From positions 1 to 19,662 of the forward strand of contig JAYWGM010000065.1 of NCBI GenBank assembly GCA_043778225.1: a stretch of 19,662 bases of DNA, written 5' to 3'. This document shows positions 4,288 through 19,662 of this stretch, one piece after another. Below the pieces are notes generated by a model. That model saw nothing but the letters and a program-made list of their open reading frames with translations, was not told the origin of the DNA and searched no databases. The stretch comes from Deinococcales bacterium (GTDB lineage Bacteria > Deinococcota > Deinococci > Deinococcales > JAAFIG01). The translations under genes were made by a program, and so were the position numbers. Within the stretch, counting starts at the first letter, position 1. The number at the start of each line of letters is the position of its first letter.

Positions 4288-4317
4288 TATGGACAGTGTG
4301 TTGCACTGTCCATATTA
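4285..4317. terminator. Probable bidirectional terminator hairpin between convergent units
   Basis: Perfect 14-bp inverted repeat TAATATGGACAGTG-tgttg-CACTGTCCATATTA between the permease stop and the stop of the valS 3' copy. Confidence 0.75.
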
Positions 4318-4325
4318 AAGTTGGG

Positions 4326-5462: not shown

Positions 5463-5495
5463 GACTCGAGTATAGCACAAGTGAAATAAGTGAAA
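5463..5495 (-). promoter_or_regulatory. Leaderless extended -10 promoter with tandem repeat (possible operator)
   Basis: TGcTATACT sits 6 nt before the ATG. AAGTGAAA occurs twice on the plus strand (5479-5486, 5488-5495) over the -35 region. Confidence 0.5.
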
Positions 5496-5608
5496 CGTTA
5501 TTCATGATAAAAATGATAGATTTTTCGCACGAAAACGACAATTCTACCAAACCCGCGAAAGAGTAAAAATGTGCGAAAAATAAAAATCAACCAGAAAATC
5601 AAAAGCAA

Positions 5609-6637
5609 TTAAGGATTCTCGAAAATTGAGAAATCGAATGTTGAAAATAATCTATTAAACGATGTTCCTTCATGACTTAAAAAAGGCACAAGATAATGGT
5701 ATATCCAATCGTTTTCATCACCCGTAATTGTAATTTCAATGATTCGAGCTTCTTCATTTATATCCCTTCTGATATAGCCATCATAATCCAGAATGCTAAT
5801 TTCCGTTTTTAGATCAGGGTACTTACAAACACGTTCAAACTTTTCCCAAACAGTTATTTTTTTAGAATTGCTGTTTTCACGATTGTCAATAATTTCTCCA
5901 AGCACTTGTCGAGTAATTCTTGGCAATACGCTTAATCCCTGAAAATAATTTCTTAAATCAGAAATAACCCTCTCAAAACCATCTATGTCCCAGTTGCTAT
6001 CAATACAAAACTTTTTGAGCTTACTGCATTCTCCCAATTGCTTTGATGGTCTTAATTCCATAAATTCCCCTAAATCTGTTGGGAATTCGCCATTTGAATT
6101 AGGCAATTCAAGTTCTATTCTCACTCGAGTAAGTTCACGCATGACAAACTGATAAATGCGCTCAAGCACATCTGGCTTAATTCCGATAAGTTTTTGGGAA
6201 AGCGTAATAATATCCCAAATATTTTCCTTTTCATTAAAATTAAGCACTTGACACAGCGTAGGATCTAACGTGTACGAGCCTTGTTTCTTACCGACAACTA
6301 ATACATATAAGGCTTCAATCTTGAATTGTTCAGAATTGGTCTTTCTTTCCTCAACTTTACGCAAAGTGTCATTTACTTTTTGCGTAGTACAAACAGTTGT
6401 GATTTGGATACCTATTTTGGAATTGGCATCGTACAAATCTATTCCTGCACTATTATTTCGCTCTCTGTTCGTATTTTCCAGATTTGAATTATCCAATTCG
6501 TTTAGGATAGTCATAAAAAAATCTTCAAGGACACGATGTAAATCAGTTAAGCCAATTTTTGCACGAAGTTCGGCACGTTCTGCAATGGTGGCAAAAGCAT
6601 CAATAATTTCACCGAGGTAACGTCCACTGAGTATCAT
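5609..6637 (-). CDS. SMEK-domain protein (putative defence nuclease effector)
   Basis: N-terminus ...LRAKIGLTDLHRVLEDFFMTILNEL...LENTN...NSAGIDLYD..SKIGIQITT follows the SMEK pattern (D.....E.F...LN....L.N.N.....gIDL.D......QiT). AT-rich. Confidence 0.8.
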   Translation of the reverse strand: MILSGRYLGEIIDAFATIAERAELRAKIGLTDLHRVLEDFFMTILNELDNSNLENTNRERNNSAGIDLYDANSKIGIQITTVCTTQKVNDTLRKVEERKTNSEQFKIEALYVLVVGKKQGSYTLDPTLCQVLNFNEKENIWDIITLSQKLIGIKPDVLERIYQFVMRELTRVRIELELPNSNGEFPTDLGEFMELRPSKQLGECSKLKKFCIDSNWDIDGFERVISDLRNYFQGLSVLPRITRQVLGEIIDNRENSNSKKITVWEKFERVCKYPDLKTEISILDYDGYIRRDINEEARIIEITITGDENDWIYHYLVPFLSHEGTSFNRLFSTFDFSIFENP

Positions 6638-6667
6638 TTTTCACCTGCTTTAAGTCTAAAACTAAAG

Positions 6668-6704
6668 TTTAGCTCACATATTTTTTATGAATACGTGAGC
6701 TAAA
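6668..6704. terminator. Stem-loop downstream of valS
   Basis: TTTAGCTCACATATT-ttttatg-AATACGTGAGCTAAA, 14 of 15 bp paired, 6 nt after the valS stop. Confidence 0.55.
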
Positions 6705-6710
6705 AGTTCT

Positions 6711-9350
6711 TTAGGCGAACTGCGCCAAGACTTTTTGTAATCTCTCAAGCTGCATTCCAAAATCCTCAATCCGCCTTTGCTCCTCGAGAAGCACATCTTC
6801 TGGTGCATTTTTCACAAAGTTCTCGTTGCTTAACTTGCTTACGGCTTGCTGCACTTGCTTCTCGAGTTCAATTACTTTTTTCTTGCCTCGAGTCACATAT
6901 TCCGATGTGTCTATCAGCCCCTCGAGCGCTAGAATCACCTCGAGTCCTGGTGCTACACCACTTATTACTTTTCCTGTAACAGTTGTCAATTGAGCGCGTG
7001 CAAGCCGCTTAAATAGTTCAGAATTTCGTTGGACTGAATTTGCATTTTCCCCAGTAATCTCAACGTACAATTCTTTGCCAAGAGGTAACATTAGTTCATT
7101 GCGTAAAATACGAACTTGAGTTACAGCGGCACGAATTGAATCAAAGTCTTCTTCAAGATTATCAAAACTTGCATTGGCTTCAGGAAACTTTTCAAATGCC
7201 AATTTATTTTCTAAACTACCATTCGGATTCCCAAGAATAATTGATTCATACAAGTACGAAGTAATGAATGGCATAAATGGGTGAAGTAGTTTTAAGATAG
7301 CCTCTAAGAGGTTCATTAAGACCTTTAGTGTTGATTTTGAGCCTGCATCAATACCACGTTTAGCTGACTCAATATACCAATCACAAAAATCGTCCCAAAC
7401 AAATGAGTAAATAGACCGAATTGCTGCTCCAAGATCGAATGCGTCTAATTGTTCTCGAGACCTACGAATAACTCCATTCAGGCGTTTGACTATCCATCTA
7501 TCTGCTATGTCTGTGATGTCATTTTCCCCCCAAAACTCTTGTAATTCTGACCTTTGGTACTGCATTAAACTCATTTGAACAAAGCGCGACGCATTCCAGA
7601 GTTTATTGGAAAAATTCCGACCCATTTCGTAACGGCGCTCATCGTGTTTAATATCCTGCCCGCCCGTGCTGAGATACGCCCATGCAAAACGACAACCATC
7701 CACGCCGTATTTATCCATTAGCTCGAGTGGGTCAATGCCATTGTTTTTGGATTTCGACATTTTCTGACCCTTGGCATCCAAGTACAAACCATGCAGCATG
7801 ACGGTATGAAATGGTGCTTGACCAGTGAATTCAAAACCAGACATTTGCATTCGCGCCACCCAGAAAAACAGGATGTCATAACCAGTCACAAGCACATCGT
7901 TAGGGTAGAATTTAGCTAAGTCCTCAGTTTGGTCTGGGTAGCCCATGGTCGAGAAATTCCAGAGTGCCGAAGAGAACCACGTATCAAAAACATCAGGGTC
8001 TCGAGTTAAAGTCAAATGCGCGTAACGGGGGTCTTGGTCACAATCCAAATCTGGATTATCTAAGTCTGGCACATAGATTTTACCATCGGCATCGTACCAA
8101 GCTGGAATTTGATGCCCCCACCAGAGTTGCCGCCCAATTGCCCATTCACGAATATTCTCGAGCCAATCTTTGTTAACCTTGGTGTAGCGCTCCGGCACAA
8201 TTTTGATTCGCCCATCCTCGAGTGCATCCAGCACTTGCCTGGCGGGTTTATCCATTTTGCACCACCACTGGGTCATGACCATCGGTTCAACAGGCTCTTT
8301 AGTGCGCTCCGAAATACCCATGCTGACCTTATAATCTTTAGCCTCGAGCAATTCGCCCGATGCCTCGAGCGCCTTGACCACGGCTTTACGGGCAGCAAAA
8401 CGCTCCATGCCACGAAATTCTTCTGGTACAAGGTCGGAGGTGAGTTTCGCAAATTTATCAATCACACTGGGGGTGGCTAAATTATGGCGTAAACCAATCT
8501 CAAAATCTGTTGGGTCATGGGCTGGGGTGATTTTCAGGCAACCCGTGCCAAAATCCATTTCAACACTCGAGTCGGCAATAATTGGAATCAGCCTATCAGT
8601 AAGTGGAATCCGCACTTTTTGACCCACAAGGCTCGAGAAACGCGCATCTTCTGGATGAACCGCCACGGCTTGGTCAGCAAAAATGGTTTCAGGACGGACA
8701 GTCGCCACGTTCATCACGCCACTACCATCCTCGAGTGCATAGCTTAGGGTGTACATCTTGCCCTGACGATCCTCACGGTCAACTTCGAGGTCAGACAACA
8801 CCGTTTGCGCCACAGGATCCCAATTAACAATTTTTTCACCACGGTACGCCATGCCTTTTGCCACGTACTCCACAAAGGTACGACGCACAGCCCGAGACAG
8901 CCCAGCATCCATTGTAAAGCGTTCTCGAGACCAATCGGCAGAAACACCAAGTCGCGTGAGTTGATGCAAAATCGTACCACCGTGCTTTTCCTTAAATGCC
9001 CAGACTCGCTCGAGGAATTTCTCACGCCCAAGATCAGACTTATGCAGACCCTCGAGAGCAAGTTCTTTTTCGACCAGCACTTGGGTACTAATCCCCGCGT
9101 GGTCAGTCCCCGGCAAGTACAGTGCCTCGAAACCCGCCATGCGCTTAAAGCGGGTCAGGACATCAATAATCGTGTTATCGAGCGCATGACCAAGATGTAA
9201 ACTGCCCGTTACATTGGGCGGCGGAATAACAATTGTAAAAGCAGGTTTACTCGAGGTTGCATCGGCACGAAACGTACCCGGTTTAGCCCAGAGTTCTGCC
9301 CAAGAAGATTCGACAGCCGATGGTTCGTATTTAGTAGGTAATTCATTCAT
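6711..9350 (-). CDS. valS: Valine--tRNA ligase
   Basis: PPPNVTGSLHLGH (HIGH), GTDHAGISTQ, ATVRPET, GTGCLKITPAHD, RQLWWGHQIP, DVFDTWFSS, KMSKS, and a C-terminal coiled coil. AAGGAG RBS before ATG 9350. Confidence 0.99.
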   Translation of the reverse strand: MNELPTKYEPSAVESSWAELWAKPGTFRADATSSKPAFTIVIPPPNVTGSLHLGHALDNTIIDVLTRFKRMAGFEALYLPGTDHAGISTQVLVEKELALEGLHKSDLGREKFLERVWAFKEKHGGTILHQLTRLGVSADWSRERFTMDAGLSRAVRRTFVEYVAKGMAYRGEKIVNWDPVAQTVLSDLEVDREDRQGKMYTLSYALEDGSGVMNVATVRPETIFADQAVAVHPEDARFSSLVGQKVRIPLTDRLIPIIADSSVEMDFGTGCLKITPAHDPTDFEIGLRHNLATPSVIDKFAKLTSDLVPEEFRGMERFAARKAVVKALEASGELLEAKDYKVSMGISERTKEPVEPMVMTQWWCKMDKPARQVLDALEDGRIKIVPERYTKVNKDWLENIREWAIGRQLWWGHQIPAWYDADGKIYVPDLDNPDLDCDQDPRYAHLTLTRDPDVFDTWFSSALWNFSTMGYPDQTEDLAKFYPNDVLVTGYDILFFWVARMQMSGFEFTGQAPFHTVMLHGLYLDAKGQKMSKSKNNGIDPLELMDKYGVDGCRFAWAYLSTGGQDIKHDERRYEMGRNFSNKLWNASRFVQMSLMQYQRSELQEFWGENDITDIADRWIVKRLNGVIRRSREQLDAFDLGAAIRSIYSFVWDDFCDWYIESAKRGIDAGSKSTLKVLMNLLEAILKLLHPFMPFITSYLYESIILGNPNGSLENKLAFEKFPEANASFDNLEEDFDSIRAAVTQVRILRNELMLPLGKELYVEITGENANSVQRNSELFKRLARAQLTTVTGKVISGVAPGLEVILALEGLIDTSEYVTRGKKKVIELEKQVQQAVSKLSNENFVKNAPEDVLLEEQRRIEDFGMQLERLQKVLAQFA

Positions 9351-9369: not shown

Positions 9370-10713
9370 CTAACTTTCCAAAAGTAAAATGGCTGTTTCT
9401 TCTATTCTTTTTAGAATTAAAGAATTATCAAATTCGGGTCGAAATTTTTTATTAAATTTCAATAGATTGTATAGAAAGGAATTAAAATTTACTTTTTCTA
9501 CAAGTGAATCCAGTGATGCAAATAAATCGTTTCGTTCAGGAATTGAAGTGGCAATTCTTGAAAATACCCAGAAATCTTGATTCATTAAAAATTCTGGATT
9601 CATTAATTCACTGAGGATTTTATATCGTGGGAAAGTTTCAATTTTTCCTAAACCAATGCTTAGAATTCTTTTTAGAACAGCATCTGATCTAAATTTCCTA
9701 CCCTCGTTAGACCTAGTAAAATAGGTCTCAACACCATTATTTATTTTAAGTTTGTTTTCGGGATCATGTAAATCCGCAAACGTTTCAAACGCCCAATACT
9801 GCATATACTCATCTCGAGTAAACTGCTCCACTTTTGATGAGTTGATATTCAATCCAATTTTGTGAAGTTCTCGAGACGCGAGAAAGAGTATTTTTTTTGC
9901 CGTCTCTGCATCTTGAGACATTATTATTTGGTCATCGGAGTATCTAATATACTTCGAGCAATTTTCATCACAGATTTTTTTCATGTATAAGTCAAAATCT
10001 TGAAGATAAAAGTTTGATAGTATTCGTGAACTATCGCCAACTTCATCTTGTGGCAGACCGACAGTTTTTCTATAGTAGCCTTCTATTGGTCTGTTCCAGT
10101 TATGTAAGAAGTGAAAAAGCAAATCAACGTAAAACATTTGCTCCTTTTCAACAGTGTGCCGTATTTTTGCTTCTAAAAGGTTCAAATTAATAGAGTCATA
10201 AAAATTTGCAATATCAAACTTTAAGAAATACTGCAAATCTCCATCTGATGCCCATTCAAAAGCTCTTTTTTGAAAGTCTTTCCAATGTTCCGACCACTCA
10301 TACGGCGTATAAGTTCCGAATGGTATCCCTGAAACAGTTGATGTTAGTCTGCTAATTTCTTCTACTTCGCGTGACTTAATAGGATTATTTAAGGTCCAAC
10401 CGCCATAAGTTCCTTCTACTCTGTTTTTGGCGATGTTTTCCTGAATTCTTTCTACGCAAAAATAGTATAGGCAATTCTCTCGAAAGTGGAAACACGGAAC
10501 TATTCTTGAAACAAGATTATGTTTATTAAAAACAACGTAATTTCTAGGGGAATTAGGGGTAAATTTTTTATGTTTAACTTCAAAGTAAAGTTCTTTTAAG
10601 AATGCGGGTTTTATTGGAAGCTCATGCTTTTCGTATTCAATTAAAGTCTCCTTAGTGCTTTTCTTCCAAAAACTACTTGAAAAAATTCTAACAAACGCCT
10701 CTTCTTGTATCAT
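9370..10713 (-). CDS. Stand-alone reverse transcriptase, Abi/UG (defence-associated RT)-like
   Basis: RT motifs KFDIANFYDSI, GLPQDEVGDSSRILSNFYL, YIRYSDD and GLNINSSK, with a helical C-terminal extension. No intron maturase/HNH domain. AGGAG RBS. AT-rich. Confidence 0.88.
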   Translation of the reverse strand: MIQEEAFVRIFSSSFWKKSTKETLIEYEKHELPIKPAFLKELYFEVKHKKFTPNSPRNYVVFNKHNLVSRIVPCFHFRENCLYYFCVERIQENIAKNRVEGTYGGWTLNNPIKSREVEEISRLTSTVSGIPFGTYTPYEWSEHWKDFQKRAFEWASDGDLQYFLKFDIANFYDSINLNLLEAKIRHTVEKEQMFYVDLLFHFLHNWNRPIEGYYRKTVGLPQDEVGDSSRILSNFYLQDFDLYMKKICDENCSKYIRYSDDQIIMSQDAETAKKILFLASRELHKIGLNINSSKVEQFTRDEYMQYWAFETFADLHDPENKLKINNGVETYFTRSNEGRKFRSDAVLKRILSIGLGKIETFPRYKILSELMNPEFLMNQDFWVFSRIATSIPERNDLFASLDSLVEKVNFNSFLYNLLKFNKKFRPEFDNSLILKRIEETAILLLES

Positions 10714-10754
10714 TTCAATCTCCTGACTGCAAACTCAACCATTCAACATTTTTT

Positions 10755-10833
10755 CTCGAGGCTTGGGGCTTTGGCTGGTTGGGCAAGGCGTGCCTTGCCA
10801 CTACGGGTTTCTAGGCTCGAGCTTTGGCGCTTT
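10755..10833 (-). repeat. Cassette-boundary repeat R1 (hicB 3' end copy + GTAG-REP-like hairpin + CTCGAG)
   Basis: Minus strand: AAAGCGCCAAAGCTCGAGCCTAG-AAACCC-GTAGTGGCAAGGCACGCCTTGCCC-AACCAGCCAAAGCCCCAAGCCTCGAG. Matches 12975-13053 with 6 mismatches. Confidence 0.95.
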
Positions 10834-10834
10834 T

Positions 10835-11440
10835 TCATAACAGTTTCTCGAGTTCATTCACAAAACGCTGAAAATACGATAAATCCAAGAGCAGTTTGGG
10901 ATTGGTTGTCTCGAGCAATTCAAATGAAATACTGCCTTTTTTGTACTGTTTTTTTTCACAATCTTTGGTTGCTTTTTCTAGGGCTGCAAAAAGCGTTTTA
11001 CGGTTTCTTGTTTCGGGGTCGGTAGGTGCAGGTAAGGCATTTTCGTTAAAAGATTGTCCAAAAAAGCGGCGTAAGTTTTCTCTATCAGCAATTAACCATG
11101 TTTCCATGCAGGTTGCCATAAAATGCACTTGGGCATCTGTTGTGTTACTTGGTTGATTCCAATTGTCTCGAGTTTTTAAGTGCTTCCAAGGTGGTTCTTG
11201 AATAGGGTCTTCGCTATCTACGAGCAGGATGTAAATTGTGTTTTCTTCGGCTTTACGAAGCGCAATTTGAAAATCATCAAAGGCTTGTTGTCTGCCACCA
11301 CATCCAATAAATTTGGGTAATCTGCCTGCAAAACCAGCTTTTGAGAACAATTTGCTAAAGGCTGCCCGCAATGGCTCTTGGTTGGCTCGAGTATCACCGC
11401 CACCTTCAACATAAACCCGAATAGAAACTTTGGTTTTCAC
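10835..11440 (-). CDS. DUF4276 family (TOPRIM-like) protein
   Basis: YVEGGGD, GCGGR, LLVDSE and METWLIADR motifs. GTG start overlaps the ATPase stop. Confidence 0.82.
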   Translation of the reverse strand: MKTKVSIRVYVEGGGDTRANQEPLRAAFSKLFSKAGFAGRLPKFIGCGGRQQAFDDFQIALRKAEENTIYILLVDSEDPIQEPPWKHLKTRDNWNQPSNTTDAQVHFMATCMETWLIADRENLRRFFGQSFNENALPAPTDPETRNRKTLFAALEKATKDCEKKQYKKGSISFELLETTNPKLLLDLSYFQRFVNELEKLL

Positions 11441-12594
11441 CAGCGCACCCCACCAATTTCACCACGTAACCATAAATCGCCTAGTCCGTACTGCTCGAGC
11501 CATTCATCAAGTCGGTTAGTTTCCAAGCGTTTCAGTGTGGTGACACCATTTTCCTTTTCACAAACCACAATGCTTTCGGGGTCGCTCGAGAACGCATTGA
11601 CAAGAAGTTCTGAATGGGTTGTGACAATCAGTTGGGTGCGTGTGGCAGCATCTTTTAAGAGTTTGGCAATGTTTCTAATTAAATCTGGGTGCATTCCAAG
11701 TTCTGGTTCTTCGAGACAAATAAGTGGCGGCGGGTCTGGGTCGAGTAAAAGCGTGACAAGCACCAAATACCGTAGAGTGCCATCGGATAAACGAATGGCT
11801 GGAATGCTTTTATCACCTTCGGATATAAACAATGCCGCGTTTGCATTGCCAATATCAATGTTAATGTCAGTAATACCATCGTAAACTTCTTTGAAGGCTT
11901 CAATAATTTTTTGTTTGGTTGAAGGTGTTCTAAATAAACGGCTTAAAAAAAGACAGAAATTTGAAAAATCCTCTTCTAGTACACTATTTCGCATATCCGC
12001 TCTTTGGGGTTGACGCAAAATTGAATAATGCCCAAATGACCAATTTCGGTAAAGTTTAATCTTTTCAAATGAAGTAGTAATTTTCGATAAGTACCAAGTA
12101 GTGTTTGGGTATTTAATCTGACCTAAAACAGAAGAATTAAAATCCAAAGAATTAATTGATATTTTATTAAAATTGTGATCCAATAAAATTGGATGTTTAT
12201 AATTAAAATCATAAATCAGTGTATCTATTGCGTTGCTCGAAATCTCTTCAGCTAAGATTCGCAAATCCCGATTCTCTTGTGTGAATCTAAAAAGATACTT
12301 CATCTCTTCAAAAAAACGCACTTTAAGTTCAACTATATTTGGATCACCAGATTTATTTGAATCACCAGATTTATGAGTCCATTCTTGAATTCCTCCTCCT
12401 CGAGAAATAACATCATCTAAACTTCCACTTGCACGTTGAGGAATTGTTAATGCTCTTAAAAAAGCAAAAACCTCCAAAAAATTAGATTTTCCTGACCCAT
12501 TTGCCCCAATAAGGATATTCAAGCGGTTCAGCTTGAATGCTGGTGTTTGGCTCGAGAATGAAAGCAAATTTTTTATTTCAATACTAGAAATCAT
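11437..12594 (-). CDS. AAA_21/ABC-like ATPase (COG4637-like), partner of DUF4276
   Basis: Walker A GANGSGKSN, signature LSDGTLR, Walker B LEEPELGMHP, H-loop TTHS and terminal LGDLWLRGEIGG. Confidence 0.9.
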   Translation of the reverse strand: MISSIEIKNLLSFSSQTPAFKLNRLNILIGANGSGKSNFLEVFAFLRALTIPQRASGSLDDVISRGGGIQEWTHKSGDSNKSGDPNIVELKVRFFEEMKYLFRFTQENRDLRILAEEISSNAIDTLIYDFNYKHPILLDHNFNKISINSLDFNSSVLGQIKYPNTTWYLSKITTSFEKIKLYRNWSFGHYSILRQPQRADMRNSVLEEDFSNFCLFLSRLFRTPSTKQKIIEAFKEVYDGITDINIDIGNANAALFISEGDKSIPAIRLSDGTLRYLVLVTLLLDPDPPPLICLEEPELGMHPDLIRNIAKLLKDAATRTQLIVTTHSELLVNAFSSDPESIVVCEKENGVTTLKRLETNRLDEWLEQYGLGDLWLRGEIGGVRW

Positions 12595-12635
12595 GGACTC
12601 ACCTCAACTTTAATGTTTACCATAAAGGTCTTAAC

Positions 12636-12676
12636 CTATCCTGCTCGAGCTTGGGGCTTTGGCTGGTTGGGCAGGC
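12636..12676 (-). repeat. Cassette-boundary repeat R2 (truncated) plus 14-bp copy of the NUDIX 3' end
   Basis: Minus strand GCCTGCCCAACCAGCCAAAGCCCCAAG-CTCGAGCAGGATAG. The final 14 nt are identical to 18578-18591. Confidence 0.9.
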
Positions 12677-12678
12677 AG

Positions 12679-12758
12679 TTAAATCAATTCCACATCGTAA
12701 AGCCCAAATTTTTCTCGAGACTCCAAATCAAAATGTGTGCATCAAGAAGTAATTTCAT
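12679..12758 (-). pseudogene. Internally deleted vapC remnant
   Basis: MKLLLDAHILIWSLE (PIN N-terminus, ending at CTCGAG), then AAAAA, then an out-of-frame FGLYDVELI*. The 31 nt at 12678-12708 are identical to 17278-17308 at the end of the intact vapC. Confidence 0.9.
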
Positions 12759-12961
12759 TCCATGTACTCTTTCATGTCCTCGAGAGGCGCATTAAAATCA
12801 TCACTCATTTTCCAACCCTTTAGACTGCCGACCAAACCGCGTTTCTTGGGCTTAATTTCAAATTCTCGGTTTTCTAAGGTAATCACGACACTTTCACCGG
12901 CGGCGGCTTGTTGCAATAAAGCGACTAGGTTTTGTTGGGCTTCAATAATGCTTACGGTCAT
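12755..12961 (-). CDS. Phd/YefM-like antitoxin (DUF2281-like C-terminus), copy 2
   Basis: MTVSIIEAQQNL..L...A..GE.VVIT followed by GSLKGWKMSDDFNAPLE. AAGGAG RBS. Paralog of 17662-17877. Confidence 0.85.
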   Translation of the reverse strand: MTVSIIEAQQNLVALLQQAAAGESVVITLENREFEIKPKKRGLVGSLKGWKMSDDFNAPLEDMKEYME

Positions 12962-12974
12962 GGTTTTCTCCTTT

Positions 12975-13030
12975 CTCGAGGCTTGGGGCTTTGGCTGGTT
13001 GGGCAAGGCAAGCCCCGCCCCTACGGGTTT
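12975..13030 (-). repeat. Cassette-boundary repeat R3
   Basis: Minus strand AAACCC-GTAGGGGCGGGGCTTGCCTTGCCC-AACCAGCCAAAGCCCCAAGCCTCGAG, immediately followed by AAAGGAG RBS. Confidence 0.95.
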
Positions 13031-13399
13031 CTAGGCTCGAGCTTTAGCGCTTTGTTCGGCAAGTAGTGTTGCTACCATTTGATTCAAACTCACATTGTTC
13101 TGCTCGGCTTGTTCGGCTAAACGCTGATGCAAATTGCTGGGAAGGCGCACCACAAAACGCCCACTGTACTTTTTTTGCATCGCAGGTAATGGAATTGAGT
13201 TTCCAAGCTCGAGATTGACTTTGAGCCAAGCAAATTTTGCATCCTCGAGCATGGCTAGGGCTTCCTCGAGCGTATCGCCTTGCGAGACACAACCAGCTAA
13301 ATCTTTTATTTCCACCGAGTACCCAATGGCTTCGGGAATCAGGGTAATTGGGTATTTGAGGCTTAGGTAATACTCGAGTTTTGGTGTTTTATTTTTCAT
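13031..13399 (-). CDS. hicB: HicB family antitoxin (orphan; no hicA seen)
   Basis: LEYYLSLKYPI, DLAGCVSQGDTLEEAL and a C-terminal RHH YSGRFVVRLPSNLHQRLAEQAEQNNVSLNQ. Start at ATG 13399. Confidence 0.9.
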   Translation of the reverse strand: MKNKTPKLEYYLSLKYPITLIPEAIGYSVEIKDLAGCVSQGDTLEEALAMLEDAKFAWLKVNLELGNSIPLPAMQKKYSGRFVVRLPSNLHQRLAEQAEQNNVSLNQMVATLLAEQSAKARA

Positions 13400-14474
13400 T
13401 GGTTTTCCTTCTTTCATTAGCTCGAGTTTGCTTAGCTGGTTTAACTTGCTTTGGTTCATCGCTCACCTTGGCTAATTCTGCCTCGAGTTGTGCAATGGTT
13501 GGTAAATCCAACTCGAGGTCTTTAGGTAAAGCTGTCACAAAATCTGCCACGCCAATAGGAGCGCTAACTCCACGCAGAACATACTCGGCTATATTCCCAT
13601 TTTTGCCTTTGCAAAGAATTAAGCCTATGGTTGGTGCATCTTGCGGATGCCTGAGTAAGTCGTCTACTGCGCCAACGTAAGCGAGGACTTGTCCAACATC
13701 GGCAGGTTCAAAATCTCTGGCTTTTAATTCAATCACCACAAAAGCCCTTAATTTTAGGTGGTAAAAAAGTAAATCAATGTAAAAATCTTGCCCTCCAATC
13801 TCGAGGTGATACTGACTGCCAACAAGTGCAAATCCCACTCCTAGCTCAAGCATAAATTTTTTCAGGTACTCGAGTAAACCAGCTTCTAAGGCGCGTTCAT
13901 GGGCATCTTTGCCAAGGGTAAGAAAATCAAAATTGTAGGGGTCTTTGAGAATTTGTTGCGCGAGGTCAGATTGCAACGGTGGTAGGGTTGCGGCAAAATT
14001 TGTAATGGCTTTGCCGCTTCGTTCAAAGAGTTTAGATTGAATTTGTAACTCGAGGATACTTCTGCTCCAACCGTTCTCGAGGGTTTGTTTGGCATACCAA
14101 AGGCGTTGATTATGGTCTTTAATTTTCTCGAGCAGCACAGCATTGTGCGCCCAAGGTAATTGTGCCACAAGCTGTGGCACAATTCCAGAATCGTTCTGGT
14201 AAGCTAAGTAAAATGCTCTCATTCGGTAAAGAGAACGTCTTGAGAATCCTTCAACTCCTGGTAATGCAGCTTTCAAATCCTTTGCAATTTGCTCGAGTAC
14301 CTTATCACCCCAAGTGTATTCTTTTTGTGCTTTGACAATATCTTGTCCGATTTGCCAGTAAAGCATGACAAGCTCTTGGCTGACAGCCAGTGCTGCTTTG
14401 ACTTGGGTTTGTTGAATACGTTTTTTAAGGTCAAGTAAGAAAATCTCGTATTCAGTTTTTGGTTTTTCTAACAT
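13389..14474 (-). CDS. DUF1016/YhcG family PD-(D/E)xK nuclease-domain protein
   Basis: LYWQIG, WG.KV, GFSRRSLYRMRAFY, LPWAHN, KDPYNFDFL, FYIDLLFYHLKLR, VIELK and TIGLILC. Confidence 0.93.
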   Translation of the reverse strand: MLEKPKTEYEIFLLDLKKRIQQTQVKAALAVSQELVMLYWQIGQDIVKAQKEYTWGDKVLEQIAKDLKAALPGVEGFSRRSLYRMRAFYLAYQNDSGIVPQLVAQLPWAHNAVLLEKIKDHNQRLWYAKQTLENGWSRSILELQIQSKLFERSGKAITNFAATLPPLQSDLAQQILKDPYNFDFLTLGKDAHERALEAGLLEYLKKFMLELGVGFALVGSQYHLEIGGQDFYIDLLFYHLKLRAFVVIELKARDFEPADVGQVLAYVGAVDDLLRHPQDAPTIGLILCKGKNGNIAEYVLRGVSAPIGVADFVTALPKDLELDLPTIAQLEAELAKVSDEPKQVKPAKQTRANERRKTNEK

Positions 14475-14483
14475 AGATTACCT

Positions 14484-14510
14484 CTCGAGGCTTGGGGCTT
14501 TGGCTGGGCA
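14484..14510 (-). repeat. Cassette-boundary repeat R4 (short)
   Basis: Minus strand TGCCCAGCCAAAGCCCCAAGCCTCGAG, followed by AGGTAATCT-ATG of DUF1016. Confidence 0.9.
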
Positions 14511-14516
14511 ATCGTT

Positions 14517-15257
14517 TCATACTTTCTTGGCTCGAGACTTTTGATGTTGTCGTTTATGGGCGGCTTTGATTTTCTCGAGTAATTCCCGTGGCTTGCTTTC
14601 AAATGCAGCAAAAGTGCTTATATTGTCATGTTTCAAATGGATTTGTCCTTCGCCTGTGTTGCCTCGGTGCTGACCAGTGGAATAATACTTGTTGGTGGCT
14701 ATTTCACTCGAGCATAAAACCCAGTAACGAATAATGTCGCGCCAAACGGCTATCCAAATAAAAATATCACTGCAATCAGGTTTGACTTGTTGAAAATTCA
14801 TGTCAAATCGTTTGCTTGAACTCGAGGCTAGGGCTTTGACATAAAGGGCTTCTTGGCTATCAAAATCTACGGCTCGAGAGGCTTTAACTTCGATTTTGAT
14901 ATTACCCAGTAAAAAATCGTATTGCCCTGAGTAACTTGAGTCTAGTTTCTTAGTGGGTTTGACCAGTTCAGGAACGATTTCTTTCAAATGTCCTTGCGCC
15001 CAATTTTCTCCGAATCCTCTGGGCGAAGTCATTTCAAAAAGATGCAGGTACATATTTCGAGCTAAGTATTCGTCGCGCAGGTCGTAATAATCGTTTAGGG
15101 AAATTTTGTTGTTTCCCATCAGGCTGGAAATTAGAAATTCAAATTCGTTAAAGGGATACACCGAAAATAAATCATCGAGCCTTTGCATAATCTCTTCGCG
15201 TTTGGTTTGCTCTAATTGCTCGAGAAGTGTTTGTAAATGCTGTTTTAAGATTTCCAT
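14517..15257 (-). CDS. Putative type II restriction endonuclease
   Basis: PD-(D/E)xK-like YDFLLGNIKIEVKASR and NFQQVKP. Overlaps the end of the methyltransferase. GGAGAGG RBS before ATG 15257. Confidence 0.7.
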   Translation of the reverse strand: MEILKQHLQTLLEQLEQTKREEIMQRLDDLFSVYPFNEFEFLISSLMGNNKISLNDYYDLRDEYLARNMYLHLFEMTSPRGFGENWAQGHLKEIVPELVKPTKKLDSSYSGQYDFLLGNIKIEVKASRAVDFDSQEALYVKALASSSSKRFDMNFQQVKPDCSDIFIWIAVWRDIIRYWVLCSSEIATNKYYSTGQHRGNTGEGQIHLKHDNISTFAAFESKPRELLEKIKAAHKRQHQKSRAKKV

Positions 15258-17197
15258 GATGCCTCTCCGATGGTTTGTTGAATTAAACCAATTTCTTCTT
15301 CGGTTAAACAAAAAACTTGATATACCAAAGCATTGATTTCTGAGCTATCCGTTTTCTGCTCGAGTATCTGGTTCACTTTACTCTCGATTTCATCATGTAT
15401 TTCTGGCTCGAGAACCGGAAATGGTAATTTTTCAAGGTCGCCTCGCAGCACCTTATGGGTGGCAAATTTCCTGGTAAATAAAAACTGAAATAAGCTCGAG
15501 TTTAGGAATGCCATCACGACTTTAATACTCATATTTGGAATTTTTGGAATCAGGATATTGGCACTGTTGAGTGTTAGGGCTTGTGATTGATCAAATGCAA
15601 AAACCAGTTTTTTGGATATGAATTTGTACACCAGTTTTTCTTCGGCTCGAAAGAAGCGTTCTGGTGCGACTTGCTGAAATTCGTTTGGAGTAAATTCTAT
15701 AAATGTTTTGGCTTCTATTAGGTAAAATGGTTGTATGTCGCTGCCCCTAAAAATAGGCTCGAGATTTGGTGATTGCTCCAAGCGTAAGAACTTGGTGTTA
15801 TTGCCTGTGACAATGCCAAGCGCCCATTCGGAATGCCCGTGCAAGGTGAAATGCGGTGTGGTATAAATTTTTGCAATTAATGCTTGCTGGTCAGTATCTA
15901 CTTGTGTATCAAAAATAAAGTCTGAGTTTTTCAAAAATCTATTCTGATTGACTCGAGTCGTAATGTTCTTATCGTCTATTAGGTCAAGCCAATGGTCTTC
16001 TGGAATTGCTTTTTGAATATCCAAACGAATAACAGGTGTGAAAACCTCACTAAATTGCCGTCCCAATTCAATAATCCTGATTATTGAATTGTTCTTGAGA
16101 ATGTATGCTCGAATGTCCGCATGGGTTTTTATTTTCAAAATGGATTCAGGCAAAATAAAAGATAGTTCGCCGTTTTGTTTGAGTAATTGCAAGGATTTTA
16201 GTATAAACATGGAGAATGTCTCACCAGATTGAAGTATGCCCTCGAACTGCTTTGGGATACTCGAGTTTTTATATGCGCCCCAAGGCGGATTGGTGGCAAT
16301 CACATCAAAAAAACCTATCAGATGATTTGTTTCGCAAAAAAATTCTTCATTTGCAAGTTCAGAAAGTGCATCTAAACAAAAAATTCTAGGTGTAAATTCT
16401 GAAGTCTTAAATTGCAATAATAAGTTAATTCGAGCAATTTGTACGGCAATGCTGTCAATATCAAACCCATAAATTGATTCTGGTTGCAAAGAAAACACTT
16501 GCGCTGCGCCAATCAAGTATTTTCCAGTTCCACAACAAGGGTCTAAAAAATTACTGACATTTTCGAGCATCACATCTTTTAAGGCTTCTTGTACCAAATG
16601 TGTTGGGGTGTAATACGAACCCAAATTCGATTTGTTACCTTCGCTGCGTAAAGACTGATAAAGAATTCCAAGGAAATCATCAGTATTCTGCTCGAGAAGT
16701 GAAGCATAGACACTTGAATATAAGTCTCTGTGCTGAATCGTGCCAAAACTGGCTTGCCAATTGTTCATTTCTTTTTGAACCGAAACTCGAGTAAAAATGG
16801 CTTTGGTTAAGTCAAAAATATCGATTTGTGTACTTCTTTTTATCTCAAAATTCTGCTCGAGTTGACAAATAGTTGCTAAGAATAAAAGTGGTTCAAGCTC
16901 GAGTGCATTTTCCTTAAATTTTTGCACAATCAATTGCAGATTCCCGAGGTCATCAGCATTTGTCGCCGACTCAAGCGGAATAAAATTCTGTTTGGACTGC
17001 GCTTTATTTGCCCGAATATGCAGCTTCTGAATAGAACCATCGGAAATTTGGTTTTTAAGACTAATTAAACTGTCCTCCGAGAAAGCCAAGGGATGGGCAT
17101 TCACAGGACTGACGTACCCAGCCTTGACCCAATTGCGAATGGTCGCAGAGGAAACGCCTATGATTTGTGCAGCCTTATCTATGGAAACTTGATTCAT
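15245..17197 (-). CDS. N6-adenine DNA methyltransferase (gamma/TaqI-like) with N-terminal HTH
   Basis: GSYYTP, motif I FLDPCCGTG and motif IV NPPW. C-terminal TaqI_C-like TRD (GIVTGNN, FRGSDI, KLVYKFI, LNSS..LEKLPFP). N-terminal AAQIIGVSSATIRNWVKAG HTH. Confidence 0.9.
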   Translation of the reverse strand: MNQVSIDKAAQIIGVSSATIRNWVKAGYVSPVNAHPLAFSEDSLISLKNQISDGSIQKLHIRANKAQSKQNFIPLESATNADDLGNLQLIVQKFKENALELEPLLFLATICQLEQNFEIKRSTQIDIFDLTKAIFTRVSVQKEMNNWQASFGTIQHRDLYSSVYASLLEQNTDDFLGILYQSLRSEGNKSNLGSYYTPTHLVQEALKDVMLENVSNFLDPCCGTGKYLIGAAQVFSLQPESIYGFDIDSIAVQIARINLLLQFKTSEFTPRIFCLDALSELANEEFFCETNHLIGFFDVIATNPPWGAYKNSSIPKQFEGILQSGETFSMFILKSLQLLKQNGELSFILPESILKIKTHADIRAYILKNNSIIRIIELGRQFSEVFTPVIRLDIQKAIPEDHWLDLIDDKNITTRVNQNRFLKNSDFIFDTQVDTDQQALIAKIYTTPHFTLHGHSEWALGIVTGNNTKFLRLEQSPNLEPIFRGSDIQPFYLIEAKTFIEFTPNEFQQVAPERFFRAEEKLVYKFISKKLVFAFDQSQALTLNSANILIPKIPNMSIKVVMAFLNSSLFQFLFTRKFATHKVLRGDLEKLPFPVLEPEIHDEIESKVNQILEQKTDSSEINALVYQVFCLTEEEIGLIQQTIGEASWKS

Positions 17198-17220
17198 AAC
17201 TCCTTCTTCTTTGCGCGAGG

Positions 17221-17265
17221 CTCGAGATTAGGGCTTTGGTTGGGCAAGGCGTGCCTAGCCCCTAC
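17221..17265 (-). repeat. Cassette-boundary repeat R5
   Basis: Minus strand GTAGGGGCTAGGCACGCCTTGCCC-AACCAAAGCCCTAATCTCGAG, between vapC and the MTase. Confidence 0.9.
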
Positions 17266-17278
17266 GGTTCAGGACGGG

Positions 17279-17665
17279 TTAAATCAATTCCACATCGTAA
17301 AGCCCAAAGAATTCATCATCTGAAACCAAGGTGGCATTCTCGCTTATGGCTTGGGCTATCAGCATTCGGTCAAACGGGTCTTTGTGATGCAACGGCAAAG
17401 GCTTTAAGACATCCAAATGCTTGGTTTGAATCTCGAGAATCTGAAAATCGAGGTTTACTAGGTGCTGCTCGAGTTTTGTTAAACTCATTTCAAGTGGCAG
17501 ATTTAACTTACCCATCCCAGCTTTGATGCTCATTTCCCAAAGACTGGCAATGCTTACTAAAACCTCGTTAGAGCCGTCCTCAATGATTTCCGAGTGCCTT
17601 AACTTGCGTTTTGGATTCTCCTCGAGATGCCAAATGAGAACGTGGGTATCAAGTAAAATCCTCAT
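17279..17665 (-). CDS. vapC: VapC/PIN toxin
   Basis: LLDTHVLIW, SIASLWEMSIK.GK and LPLHHKDPFDRMLIAQA..E...LVSDD. ATGA-coupled to the antitoxin. Confidence 0.93.
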   Translation of the reverse strand: MRILLDTHVLIWHLEENPKRKLRHSEIIEDGSNEVLVSIASLWEMSIKAGMGKLNLPLEMSLTKLEQHLVNLDFQILEIQTKHLDVLKPLPLHHKDPFDRMLIAQAISENATLVSDDEFFGLYDVELI

Positions 17666-17877
17666 TCCATGTACTCCTTAAATTCTTCGAGTGGGGCGTT
17701 AAAATCCTCGCTCATTTTCCAGCCTTTTAAGCTGCCAAGCGCACCTCGAGTTTTCTTCTTGGTGGCAGTAATTTCAAAAGCCTGATTTTCTATGGTGACA
17801 ACAATTTTTTCGCCTTCAACAGCTTTCATAATCAGGGCTTCTAGGTTTTGTTGGGCTTCTAGTATGCTTACGGTCAT
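17662..17877 (-). CDS. Phd/YefM-like antitoxin (DUF2281-like C-terminus), copy 1
   Basis: MTVSILEAQQNL...GEKIVVT...GSLKGWKMSEDFNAPLE, directly upstream of vapC. Confidence 0.87.
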   Translation of the reverse strand: MTVSILEAQQNLEALIMKAVEGEKIVVTIENQAFEITATKKKTRGALGSLKGWKMSEDFNAPLEEFKEYME

Positions 17878-17890
17878 GGTTTTCTCCTTT

Positions 17891-17913
17891 CTCGAGGCTT
17901 GGGGCTTTGGGCA
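17891..17913 (-). repeat. Cassette-boundary repeat R6 (short)
   Basis: Minus strand TGCCCAAAGCCCCAAGCCTCGAG, followed by the same AAAGGAGAAAACCATGACCGTAAGCAT as after R3. Confidence 0.9.
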
Positions 17914-17935
17914 TTGGTTTAATTATGAAACAAAT

Positions 17936-18574
17936 TTATGAACTACTTTGCCAATTTTTTTCGAGAATTTGTGTACCACCAATTGAAGCTATTTCAGTAG
18001 GGGTTGCTTCTCGAGAATGCAGCCATGCGTTTATACTTACTTCAATTGCAAAGTCATCATTGAAAGAGCATAAAACACTGCCCGCCGAGCTATGCCAAGC
18101 CACTGAACCTCCAAAAGTTGCACATGGAAATGAAGTTTCCCAAGGCGGATATGATGGATATTCAAGGTTCAAATCTAAGATACTTCGCACAATATTTTTA
18201 CGGATTTCTCGAGGGATTTCAGATGGCGAATTATGTATCTGTCGAATCGGACAATCTAGTACAACTTGGATAATTGCATTTTTAACAACATCAAAATCTT
18301 CATCGTGAAAATGTGTCAAAGGTGGGAAATTATTTTCCTCGCGCATAAAACGGACAACAGAATAGAAAACCCAACCTGAATCTAAAGAATACTCGCGTTG
18401 CTGATTGCGATGATCTTCTATTTTCCTTGAGTACCAATTCAAAAGCGCAATCAATTCCCAAGTGCCATCAAAAATACTAATGGAACTATATTCAGAAAGG
18501 TTCTTTAGCTTTTCTGGAGAAGTCAGAATATCTTCGTAATGTGGGTAATCTTTTGAGTCAATGATAAGTTTCAT
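17936..18574 (-). CDS. Hypothetical protein (212 aa)
   Basis: AT-rich ORF whose ATG overlaps the NUDIX stop (ATGA). No motif recognised. Confidence 0.7.
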   Translation of the reverse strand: MKLIIDSKDYPHYEDILTSPEKLKNLSEYSSISIFDGTWELIALLNWYSRKIEDHRNQQREYSLDSGWVFYSVVRFMREENNFPPLTHFHDEDFDVVKNAIIQVVLDCPIRQIHNSPSEIPREIRKNIVRSILDLNLEYPSYPPWETSFPCATFGGSVAWHSSAGSVLCSFNDDFAIEVSINAWLHSREATPTEIASIGGTQILEKNWQSSS

Positions 18575-19488
18575 AAACTATCCTGCTCGAGTTTAGTTTT
18601 GAGTTCATCAATAAATTCAGCCATTTCCCAGTCAATTTGTGCTTCTGTTATTGGTACAAACGAATGCTTAAAAACCTTGCCTTTGTCATCTTCGCCGTCT
18701 GATACAACCCATTCCCAAGAATCCCTAGGCTCGAGGGTCTTAAACCAATAGTAATACCTGTCCTCCAGAAATTCGAGCGGCGAACCATTTTCTGGGTGTG
18801 CGCCTTTGAAGTAATAGTCTTGCCGCCCGAGAAAAACAGGATTCTCGAGACTTAGCCCGCTTTCCTCGAGAATTTCGCGCTTGGCGGCTTCTAAAGGCGT
18901 TTCGCTATCTTCAATGCCGCCTGCTGGTACGCCCATGCCGCCGTCTGGGTGTCCCGAGAAGGTCAGGACTTCGTGTCCTCGGGTGATGTAACAAATCACG
19001 CATGGGCGAATATTGGCGCGTGAAATCTGTAACTCGAGTCCGAGGTGTTTTCCCAATTCGGGTAGCATCGCATCCATATCGTAATGCAGTATCACATTCT
19101 CGAGTTTTTCAAAGCGGTGATAAAAAACGTATTTTTCTTCGGCGAAATGCTCCCACGTATCCCGTTTTTCAGTTGTCTCGAGCCACACAAAATGCCAGAC
19201 TGATGTACTCATCCCATTTTTGTATAAGCCAGAACCAAGATGCTGTTTCATTTCGAGGTTCTCGAGTCCTGTTTCCTCATGGGCTTCTCGAGTTGCGGCT
19301 TCAAAAACTGTTTCGCCAGTCTCGAGTCCACCGGCTGGGACTTGAATTCCTGCGGTTGGATACTTAGCTTCGTGTTCAAAGACTAAAATCTCGAGTCCTC
19401 GGGTGATGTAGACACAAACCCGTTGGCGTATGCCGTTGGCTCGGGCGTGTGCTTGGGCTGTCTCGAGATTGGCATACTTGGTAAACAT
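18571..19488 (-). CDS. Tandem double-NUDIX hydrolase
   Basis: Two Nudix boxes, GGLETGETVFEAATREAHEETGL and GGIEDSETPLEAAKREILEESGL, each preceded by a C.YITRG.E(I/V)L repeat. GAGG RBS. GTG at 19494 is an alternative start. Confidence 0.92.
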   Translation of the reverse strand: MFTKYANLETAQAHARANGIRQRVCVYITRGLEILVFEHEAKYPTAGIQVPAGGLETGETVFEAATREAHEETGLENLEMKQHLGSGLYKNGMSTSVWHFVWLETTEKRDTWEHFAEEKYVFYHRFEKLENVILHYDMDAMLPELGKHLGLELQISRANIRPCVICYITRGHEVLTFSGHPDGGMGVPAGGIEDSETPLEAAKREILEESGLSLENPVFLGRQDYYFKGAHPENGSPLEFLEDRYYYWFKTLEPRDSWEWVVSDGEDDKGKVFKHSFVPITEAQIDWEMAEFIDELKTKLEQDSL

Positions 19489-19491
19489 AAA

Positions 19492-19662
19492 CACCTCGTC
19501 CGTAAAATATGCGGACGAGATGGGTGCGTTGTCGCGCCGTCCCGCGTTACCACCGCTTTTCTCGAGCCGAGTTCTTAAAAAACTGGTCGAGCGCTCTTGC
19601 TACGCTGTGATGGGCGCTCCCAGAGGATTCTACTGGTGTGGGCGTGTGACCGCCCACCTGTT
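19492..19662 (-). promoter_or_regulatory. T-box riboswitch leader, probably Val-specific (5' part runs off the window)
   Basis: T-box sequence GCGG-UGGUAAC-GCGGGA (19556-19540) pairs with UCUCGU-CCGC (19520-19511) to form the antiterminator with a 7-nt bulge. The alternative hairpin CAUCUCGUCCG...CGGACGAGGUG (19522-19492) covers the NUDIX SD and is followed by UUUAUGUUU. UGGU is complementary to ACCA (A73, as in tRNA-Val). Candidate GUA specifier at 19633-19631. Confidence 0.85.

Follow-up and report, generated by a model that had tools for sequence, protein, structure and literature searches.

Breakpoints at a boundary repeat and at CTCGAG in an integrase-free cassette array between NUDIX and valS of a Deinococcales genome

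Introduction

How does a row of toxin-antitoxin and defence modules come to lie in one orientation between two conserved genes, and how do its content and order change from genome to genome, with no visible mobility gene? This question is raised by the interval between the gene for a NUDIX hydrolase and valS in an uncultured Deinococcales bacterium. The window analysed here is a whole contig of 19,662 b (G000:C65; JAYWGM010000065.1) from a metagenome-assembled genome (MAG; GCA_043778225.1). This assembly, referred to as G000, has 4.03 Mb and is 89% complete. All genes from NUDIX through valS (19494 down to 6711) are on the minus strand.

Content and order of the interval are variable, breakpoints lie in a boundary repeat or at CTCGAG, strains are polymorphic at the locus, parallel arrays exist, and gene ends are duplicated. 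The array works like an integron, yet it fails both defining tests, the integrase (IntI) and its attC sites. Our preferred explanation, to which we attribute a probability of about 50%, is repeated insertion with long target duplication, combined with homologous recombination between the resulting repeats, joins being favoured at CTCGAG. NUDIX-valS would then be an integrase-free cassette hotspot within an apparent single transcription unit.

The array and its features

The modules are separated by boundary repeats (R1 to R6). These have a C/A-rich tail that ends in CTCGAG, which in some copies is preceded by a GTAG hairpin of the repetitive extragenic palindrome (REP) type. The features are listed from the upstream to the downstream anchor. 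Assignments are by Pfam and PADLOC, and ORF stands for open reading frame.

18571..19494, minus strand: NUDIX hydrolase, upstream conserved anchor (Pfam NUDIX, E 2.8e-29); it adjoins the variable interval in relatives.
17936..18574, minus strand: 212-aa ORF of no family; start and NUDIX stop share ATGA, without an intervening repeat.
17891..17915, minus strand: R1, tail and CTCGAG, without hairpin.
17279..17877, minus strand: Phd1 (17662-17877) and VapC1/PIN (17279-17665), a toxin-antitoxin module (Pfam PIN, 1.3e-17; Phd/DUF2281, weak).
17221..17268, minus strand: R2, GTAG hairpin, variant tail and CTCGAG.
14517..17197, minus strand: type II restriction-modification (R-M) module, with an N6-adenine methyltransferase (MTase, 15245-17197; Pfam N6_Mtase/Eco57I/TaqI_C; PADLOC MTase_II, 1.7e-104) and a restriction endonuclease (REase, 14517-15257; PADLOC REase_II, 5.1e-69).
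14484..14509, minus strand: R3, tail and CTCGAG, without hairpin.
13389..14474, minus strand: DUF1016/YhcG PD-(D/E)XK nuclease gene, PDC-S02 (Pfam, PADLOC).
13421..13456, minus strand: degenerate seventh boundary before HicB, a tail-like stretch and CTCGAG, as read from the sequence.
13031..13459, minus strand: HicB-family antitoxin gene (Pfam HicB, 2.6e-12); probable start ATG at 13399.
12972..13053, minus strand: R4, an 82-nt unit (upstream CTCGAG, GTAG hairpin, tail, CTCGAG), direct repeat of R6.
12678..12961, minus strand: Phd2 (12755-12961) and a VapC remnant with an internal deletion (dVapC).
12644..12670, minus strand: R5, tail and CTCGAG, most of the hairpin being deleted relative to R2.
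10835..12594, minus strand: AAA_21 ATPase (11437-12594) and DUF4276 (10835-11440), the candidate defence pair HEC-01 (Pfam; PADLOC HEC-01A, 1.5e-129, and HEC-01B, 2e-70).
10752..10833, minus strand: R6, an 82-nt unit, copy of R4 including a non-coding remnant of the HicB 3' end.
9370..10713, minus strand: reverse transcriptase (RT) of defence type UG13b (DRT UG13b; PADLOC RT_UG13b, 8.2e-140; Pfam RVT_1), the last cassette; no repeat lies between it and valS.
6711..9350, minus strand: valS, downstream conserved anchor (Pfam); homology across genomes resumes at its ATG.
6668..6704, minus strand: strong terminator-like hairpin 3' of valS (15-pair stem and T run).

Variation among relatives and strains

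NUDIX and valS are conserved anchors across all five genera of the family, which are represented by a comparison set of 19 genomes. In 10 genomes from four of the five genera, both genes are on one contig, 1.1-9.2 kb apart and with differing ORFs between them. The locus has the mark of a core-gene-flanked hotspot, the same two genes with different content between them. Four congeners besides G000 are readable here (G003, G004, G006 and G007). An alignment of the interval across relatives had been proposed in the original prediction; it has now been made, and content and order differ in every readable congener, with breakpoints in the repeat or at CTCGAG. The orders are as follows.

G000: 212aa / Phd1-VapC1 / MTase-REase / DUF1016 / HicB / Phd2-dVapC / AAA21-DUF4276 / RT.
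G003: 148aa / MTase-REase / 74aa and REPs / 257aa.
G004: DUF1016 / Phd-VapC / 122aa / 120aa.
G006: a single 354-aa gene.
G007: DUF1016 / truncated 148aa-like / 182aa / unannotated stretch with a HicB-like 3' end / AAA21-DUF4276 / Phd-VapC / 215aa.

The intervals of G004 and G007 each span two contigs, and the order in G007 was deduced via overlapping DUF4276 fragments. One module has moved: Phd1-VapC1 (Phd 93-96% identical at the protein level) follows the 212-aa ORF in G000, DUF1016 in G004 and DUF4276 in G007. The cassette gene adjacent to valS differs in each readable genome of the genus.

Strains differ as well. A 392-b segment of G000 that holds Phd2-dVapC is an indel relative to G007, with GCTCGAG on both sides. 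The Phd2-dVapC segment is likewise absent from contigs that another study produced and that have 94-96% identity to the window (6 differences per 125-149-nt arm), and the deletion joint in that relative is at 13035, next to the CTCGAG at 13036-13041. A same-run contig leads from VapC via a different REP into the tail, with the joint at 12667 (tail start); its match to the window stops at 12643, beside the CTCGAG at 12644-12649, and is taken up again at the valS ATG (9350). In runs X1 and X2, which may stem from the source sample, a more abundant co-occurring strain has its joint at 12975, the CTCGAG edge of R4. This strain carries a diverged Phd2-like gene followed by an intact VapC, so the deletion in the second VapC of G000 is strain-specific. 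A crossover at or next to CTCGAG had been predicted from the window alone, and the variant contigs agree with it, joining at CTCGAG edges (12975, 12643) or beside one (13035). For runs X3 and X4, the comparison with public contigs covers the parts of the window that have contig cover.

The co-occurring strain (window 12709-12975 and 17279-17398; X1, X2) has about 3-4 times the depth in one run.

Unitigs break at every repeat. Their depth is nevertheless even (25-29 in one run and 13.6-13.8 in another, both maybe from the source sample), which supports the assembled module order in the window.

The boundary repeat

According to the original prediction, all six internal boundaries carry the same repeat, consisting of GTAG hairpin and tail, in one orientation. 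This holds for the tail ending in CTCGAG, which is found at all six in a single orientation, but not for the hairpin, which is confined to R2, R4 and R6 (three of the six copies). A 26-mer of the repeat occurs three times in the window at up to 3 mismatches, compared with no occurrence in 200 shuffles. Its 12-mer core AAAGCCCCAAGC has five exact copies, all on the minus strand (at R6, R5, R4, R3 and R1), and R2 has a variant. The distances from CTCGAG to the next ATG are 13, 23, 9, 13, 49 and 41 nt. Tail copies show internal deletions and 7-nt register changes (CTCGAG versus CTCGAGCCTCGAG).

Across 20 boundaries in five genomes of the genus, CTCGAG directly precedes the module-specific sequence in 19 cases and ATCGAG in one. 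AAAGCC[C/T]CAAG is present at 11 of these 20 boundaries and with one-letter variants at three more. The similarity step at CTCGAG is clear by eye. It is weak in an anchored ungapped-identity statistic (0.41 in the tail versus 0.29-0.38 downstream), which suffers from the differing registers of the copies.

With 93% identity over 82 nt, R4 and R6 form a direct repeat that starts at the upstream CTCGAG and is also found as a blastn self-match. The pair flanks the block from Phd2 to DUF4276. Part of the repeat is the 3' coding end of HicB in R4 and non-coding in R6, as a target duplication would give. A seventh, degenerate boundary separates DUF1016 from HicB. Relatives carry DUF1016 without HicB, and G004 and G007 have a normal repeat at that place. 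Homology of the G000 DUF1016 gene to those of G004 and G007 ends at 13453-13461.

At 13389-13459, the DUF1016 frame of G000 runs about 20 codons beyond the stop codon of the relatives, with a different sequence that overlaps the HicB frame. This extension looks like a by-product of the HicB insertion.

It had been considered a refutation if the repeat were scattered in ordinary intergenic DNA. For the tail this is not so: all four exact copies of an 18-mer from it in G000 are in the window contig, and the other four genomic matches have 2 mismatches. The tail was thus ruled out as a genome-wide intergenic element. Among the 19 family genomes, exact or one-mismatch 18-mer tails are found within the genus only, and mostly at the NUDIX-valS locus. 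Scans of public collections yielded 14 genome-contig and 20 metagenome-contig loci. Of these 34, only three combine a REP context with dense CTCGAG, namely the contigs of G003, G004 and G007 (titled Deinococcales or Deinococcota); the others are chance matches in unrelated DNA.

One-mismatch 18-mer tails off the NUDIX-valS contigs are at G003:C15:14522 and G001:C424:2708. They could mark further arrays.

The hairpin half has a different distribution, which the original prediction did not foresee. It belongs to a genome-wide, intergenic family of GTAG-REPs: GTAGGGGC occurs 101 times, dozens of these occurrences are followed by GC-rich hairpins, and R2 and R4 are among them. Some genome-wide GTAG-REPs carry a similar AACC..GCCAAAG flank or form inverted pairs. 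DNA might accordingly be moved between GTAG hairpins by single-strand transposition, either by a REP-associated tyrosine transposase (RAYT) or in the manner of IS200/IS605 elements, and the genome does code for one Y1 HUH transposase. This gene (G000:C28, around 82900-84430; L084) is the sole Y1_Tnp match, and no RAYT was found in the assembly. It lies directly upstream of a 394-aa ORF, which we take to be TnpB-like, so that the two would be an IS605-like TnpA-TnpB pair rather than a solitary RAYT. Moreover, R1, R3 and R5 are hairpin-less, a second and a third array (see below) have no REP at their boundaries, and eight folded repeat regions fold no better than shuffles (z from -1.97 to +1.10). 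RAYT-driven REP mobility was ruled out on the apparent IS605-like nature of the sole Y1 gene and the hairpin-less half of the repeats. We consider single-strand transposition in general to be very improbable.

Alternatively, the repeats might be expression signals in a long operon, with the REP hairpin protecting the upstream mRNA and the unstructured C/A-rich leader ahead of the ribosome-binding site aiding the translation of genes that lack promoters. Variation would then arise only by homologous replacement via the flanking core genes, which are conserved in all five genera, as in the minimal mobile elements of Neisseria. The repeat is indeed always placed between a stop codon and the following ribosome-binding site, and the hairpin stems vary between copies yet still pair (by eye). 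On the coding strand, no promoter-like site was found at any module boundary. The sole strong terminator-like site is that after valS; from NUDIX to 6668 there is otherwise only a weaker one (8 pairs, 12517-12538) inside the AAA_21 gene. NUDIX-valS fits one long transcription unit, as far as can be predicted from these signals. However, the tail is confined to this locus within the genome, which a general operon signal would not be. Internal repeats, and not the flanks alone, are where indels, a duplication junction and the strain-variant joints end, a single module occupies three internal positions, R6 holds a useless remnant of the HicB coding end, and the hairpin is absent from half of the copies. 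Expression signals are therefore an unlikely explanation of the array, in our view.

Duplicated gene ends at valS

The following insert lies downstream of valS.

4327..6637, minus strand: second insert at valS, with SMEK (5609-6637), HTH_17 (5043-5480) and PIN_3 (4483-5046), then a copy of the valS 3' end (4327-4486).

About 155 nt of the valS 3' end (6717-6871) are copied at 4327-4486, and the two copies flank the 2.3-kb SMEK-HTH_17-PIN_3 insert. A CTCGAG lies 5 nt from the upstream breakpoint of this duplication. The insert is present in G003 but absent from G006, where the valS 3' end is single-copy. Insertion with long target duplication is recognized by direct repeats of more than 30 bp, a single copy in a genome without the insert, and the lack of a mobility gene. 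All of this is found at the valS 3' end. It is found in part for R4/R6 (82 nt), with no empty-site genome among those compared.

The functional valS end of G003 is closer to the downstream copy of G000 (91%) than to the upstream copy (81%). This pattern suggests an exchange between the copies.

Further arrays in the genome and the family

A scan of G000 for locally clustered direct 16-mers resulted in two further loci (on contigs C81 and C40), besides tandem-repeat genes and an array with a period of 61 b.

The latter, whose direct repeats recur about every 61 b (G000:C80, 1-2700), we take to be a CRISPR array.

The second cassette array (G000:C81, around 1650-7930; L108) lies between sufB and sufD and consists of about a dozen small co-oriented ORFs. 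By Pfam, two of these are PIN toxins and one is a ParE toxin; two others are presumably lipoproteins. The boundary repeat AGCAGCCAAGGCTCGAG has four exact copies and two variants at up to 3 mismatches, and it is also present at sufB-sufD of G001 and G004. A block ending in the first ~90 nt of sufD is tandemly duplicated, and the junction is at a CTCGAG. We read this block as VapBC - RelBE-like - lipoprotein - sufD 5' end. Across the family, the sufB-sufD interval is 1.3-6.2 kb long, and its content and order differ in G001, G004, G006 and G007. The third island (G000:C40, around 11000-14200; L109) has toxin-antitoxin genes on both strands and a repeat of ~55 nt that is present 4-5 times. With an extended -10-like TGGTAGAAT inside it and GCCAATGCTCGAG at its end, this repeat might serve as a promoter present in several copies or as the start of a small RNA.

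In other genera (L075, L077, L078, L079 and L027), the boundaries at NUDIX-valS are not REP-tail repeats but remnants of the last ~60 nt of DUF1016. Such remnants recur at several boundaries, sometimes without an intact DUF1016 gene nearby. Different local repeats in each array and DUF1016-end boundaries in other genera fit recombination scars or long target duplications better than they fit one recombinase with one att site. The distinct cassette capture and shuffling system of the original prediction is supported in part: the variation and the breakpoints agree with it, while machinery of its own is not supported. The same architecture is seen at two other loci of the genome with different local repeats.

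Abundance of CTCGAG

CTCGAG occurs 128 times in the window, while 2.5 copies are expected. Among the hexamers of the 4.03-Mb assembly it ranks first (24,877 copies, about one per 162 b), being about three times as frequent as any other hexamer and about nine times as frequent as the next palindromic one (2,854 copies). Because of this genome-wide hyper-abundance, which the original prediction overlooked, a CTCGAG at a boundary is not special by its mere presence. The density is flat (about one per 160 nt) and equal in coding and non-coding DNA, according to a profile relative to start codons that serves as background only, as it is biased by a start choice that accepted GAGG, which is supplied by CTCGAGG. 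In other genera, each of six loci of 3.5-5.5 kb has 21-43 copies. The MTase from the window is restricted to G000 and G003 among the loci examined and therefore is not a family-wide agent for CTCGAG. A literature search returned no work with both CTCGAG and the term "highly iterated palindrome", and none of the papers listed on over-represented palindromes in Deinococcus and its relatives contains the word CTCGAG.

The ends of repeated sequences are informative in this context. Intragenomic blastn repeats (50-3000 b, at least 80% identity) have 29 ends exactly on the outer edge of a CTCGAG (offset 0), while the offsets from 1 to 9 have only 1-9 ends each. With the identity raised to at least 90%, the counts are 9 versus 0-4, and at 95% or more they are 5 versus 0-2. 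Repeat ends come in pairs, so that the number of independent events is about half of these counts. A control with outward distances is flat.

Two side observations concern palindromes. AGGCCT, GACGTC, GGGCCC and GGCGCC have only 1-3 copies each in G000, which suggests strong restriction avoidance. CTCGAG-bearing arms form the hairpin GCTCGAGC-loop-GCTCGAGC at C73 5755, C73 17552 and C19 10049 of G000, in each case directly after a sequence that we take to be a tRNA 3' end. The two on C73 are followed by a T run, so the CTCGAG word also builds sites resembling intrinsic terminators.

Search for a recombinase

Pfam analysis revealed no recombinase in the 19.7-kb window contig, and none was found among 18 ORFs scanned in and beside the sufB-sufD array. 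The assembly codes for three tyrosine recombinases (Phage_integrase), which score 67.9, 40.5 and 29.0 bits on TIGR02249 (cut-off 265) and are far below both the integron and the Xer cut-offs. The absence of an integron integrase and of attC, both of which had been noted for the window, thus extends to the integrases of the assembly and agrees with the repeat folds given above. On these two grounds an integron with attC sites was ruled out. The array-like, co-oriented and mostly promoterless layout and a cargo rich in toxin-antitoxin and defence genes would fit a classical integron, or else a CALIN (attC sites clustered without an integrase). Nevertheless, we judge this reading next to negligible: the best integrase score is 67.9 bits against a cut-off of 265, the repeats have no long imperfect palindrome, and a repeat precedes the first cassette while none follows the last.

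Mechanism

In the recombination pathway that we infer, a module would enter by insertion with long target duplication. This would be equivalent to a Campbell-type integration of a putative circular intermediate that carries a copy of the target. Each insertion would copy sequence originally downstream of NUDIX (REP hairpin, C/A-rich flank and CTCGAG), so that every new boundary has the repeat in direct orientation. The direct repeats of 25-82 bp, together with the conserved flanking genes, would then be substrates for homologous recombination. In this way modules would be excised, deleted, duplicated in tandem or reordered, and co-occurring strains would exchange them, probably after DNA uptake. 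As CTCGAG occurs every ~160 b in the family, it would supply ready microhomology, and joins would preferentially be formed there. It may also stimulate recombination, by analogy with the highly iterated palindrome HIP1. Co-orientation and the lack of terminators may be kept by selection, because the presumably co-transcribed unit ends with the essential valS. Insertion plus recombination would explain why each array has its own repeats, why useless gene-end remnants exist, why the orientation is uniform, why modules relocate and why other genera have their own scars.

Several points weigh against this explanation. Homologous recombination on 25-80 bp is inefficient in well-studied bacteria. 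The evidence is comparative throughout, with recombination events deduced rather than seen directly, and it comes from MAGs and public unitigs, the latter breaking at these very repeats. The excess of repeat ends at CTCGAG may in part reflect the survival of CTCGAG as identity islands in diverged repeats, a concern that the identity-filtered counts lessen. Homology resumes exactly at the valS ATG in five genomes, with a different ribosome-binding site each time; random illegitimate joining would be expected to be less exact. Four G000 copies of the tail do not differ at all, and those of G003, G004, G006 and G007 deviate from them by one letter at most, while the proteins encoded by genes shared among these genomes are only 67-91% identical; a tail conserved beyond its neighbouring genes could mean a functional site instead of a scar. 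GCCAA[A/G/T]GCTCGAG is common to the boundary repeats of all three arrays, which would not be expected of purely local scars. Finally, the incompleteness of the assembly (89%) means that a trans-acting recombinase could be missing from it.

The last four points, along with the uniform direct repeats and the module-specific sequence that begins right after CTCGAG at 19 of 20 boundaries, would suit a dedicated site-specific system. A recombinase or nuclease, encoded elsewhere or missing from the MAG, would recognize the tail or the core GCCAA[A/G/T]G...CTCGAG, would cut at or next to CTCGAG, and would insert and excise cassettes in fixed orientation, much like an integron with a new type of site. 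Yet neither the window contig nor the 18 ORFs at sufB-sufD include a recombinase, and the three tyrosine recombinases are far from the integron and Xer cut-offs. Repeats differ among the three arrays, and in other genera gene-end remnants take their place. Three of six copies have no hairpin, and a fixed site would poorly tolerate deletions and 7-nt register changes such as those seen in the tail. Elsewhere in the genome, the shared core is found mainly within coding sequence (of 105 copies, 83 are in open frames of at least 600 nt). We hold a dedicated system to be rather improbable.

The core GCCAA[A/G/T]GCTCGAG was also considered as a general boundary signal. This was ruled out by the predominance of coding copies (83 of 105), and the few non-coding ones outside the arrays include terminators flanking tRNAs. 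A reversed-motif control was discarded as uninformative, the reverse of CTCGAG not being abundant.

Insertion with long target duplication and subsequent recombination leaves room for a more active palindrome. It is tempting to think of CTCGAG as the working crossover site of a lineage-wide pathway that captures foreign genes into operon-embedded slots and shuffles them, be it as a Chi-like or uptake-linked stimulator or as the site of a cut-and-rejoin enzyme. We consider this a speculative idea with a minor chance of being correct. If it is, the pathway would be a functional analogue of the integron that is based on a hyper-abundant palindrome and works without integrase or attC, and a specific function, the capture of genes, could be assigned to words of the HIP type.

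Integrases, transposases or the replacement of whole islands are the usual explanations of defence islands and toxin-antitoxin arrays. Here, no mobility gene is visible, and yet at least two arrays in one genome, which are seen in several relatives, are modular, ordered and shuffled. The boundaries of each array consist of copies of its own target, and each is placed within an operon whose final gene is essential. Should iterated insertion with long target duplication plus repeat recombination be the mechanism, then general recombination is enough to produce an organisation like that of integrons. As joins coincide with a palindrome found every 160 b, the purpose of hyper-abundant words such as HIP1 becomes testable: altering a boundary CTCGAG is predicted to change the site and the frequency of cassette recombination.

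Neighbouring and minor features

The 212-aa ORF has no match in Pfam, NCBIfam or PADLOC, and tblastn did not detect it at the loci of seven relatives. The RT gene is AT-rich (27-36% GC in windows wholly inside) and poor in CTCGAG (2 sites in 1344 b). The start codon of valS is most likely the ATG at 9350 rather than the TTG at 9365.

Comparison with known systems

Integron arrays and CALINs are similar in having co-oriented, tightly packed and mostly promoterless cassettes that are separated by a repeat, variable in content and order, and rich in toxin-antitoxin genes. In contrast to them, the NUDIX-valS array has no IntI, no attI and no folded palindrome resembling attC. Its repeat is locus-specific, and it is placed before the first cassette and absent after the last, the reverse of where attC sites are found.

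The hairpin half of the repeat resembles the REP, BIME and REPIN families (GTAG followed by a GC-rich imperfect palindrome, dozens of intergenic relatives, some in inverted pairs). Unlike in these, a RAYT is lacking, half of the boundary copies have no hairpin, and conservation is seen in the flank instead of the palindrome.

The minimal mobile elements of Neisseria occupy a slot between two conserved genes, where each strain has a different cassette, exchanged by natural transformation and homologous recombination. The slot flanked by core genes, with variable content, is common to both, and transformability and homologous exchange are likewise what we would expect of the present lineage. The Neisseria elements, however, usually have one alternative cassette, and show neither boundary repeats inside the slot nor array-internal reordering.

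HIP1 (GCGATCGC) of cyanobacteria is, like CTCGAG, a short palindrome that is over-represented tens of times across a lineage. CTCGAG differs in being a hexamer and another word, from a different phylum, with no known methylase or function. Deletions between HIP1 sites have reportedly been observed. According to a preprint (bioRxiv 10.1101/2024.09.10.611283), HIP1 raises the efficiency of transformation and of recombination/integration, an effect that the authors liken to Chi; another report proposes it as a DNA-uptake sequence (PMC13756078). By analogy, this work makes an active role of the palindrome plausible here. A role of HIP1 at cassette boundaries was not described in the literature found in our search.

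The closest parallel is insertion with long target duplication, described by the Kobayashi group (Furuta et al. 2010, PMC2853133). As set out there, gene units enter without mobility genes, and inserted R-M units are flanked by direct repeats of >30 bp, which are copies of the target and often of a gene end. Here, the corresponding duplications are 82 nt (R4/R6), ~155 nt (valS 3' end) and ~90 nt (sufD 5' end), and the inserts are AT-richer than the genome. That process was described for single R-M units, whereas here it would be iterated at one site to give a multi-cassette array. In addition, the cargo is mostly toxin-antitoxin and other defence genes, and the joins coincide with a hyper-abundant palindrome. 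We rate the array as an extension of what is known of long-target-duplication insertion and of hotspots flanked by core genes, with the link to the palindrome as the part that is worth an experiment.

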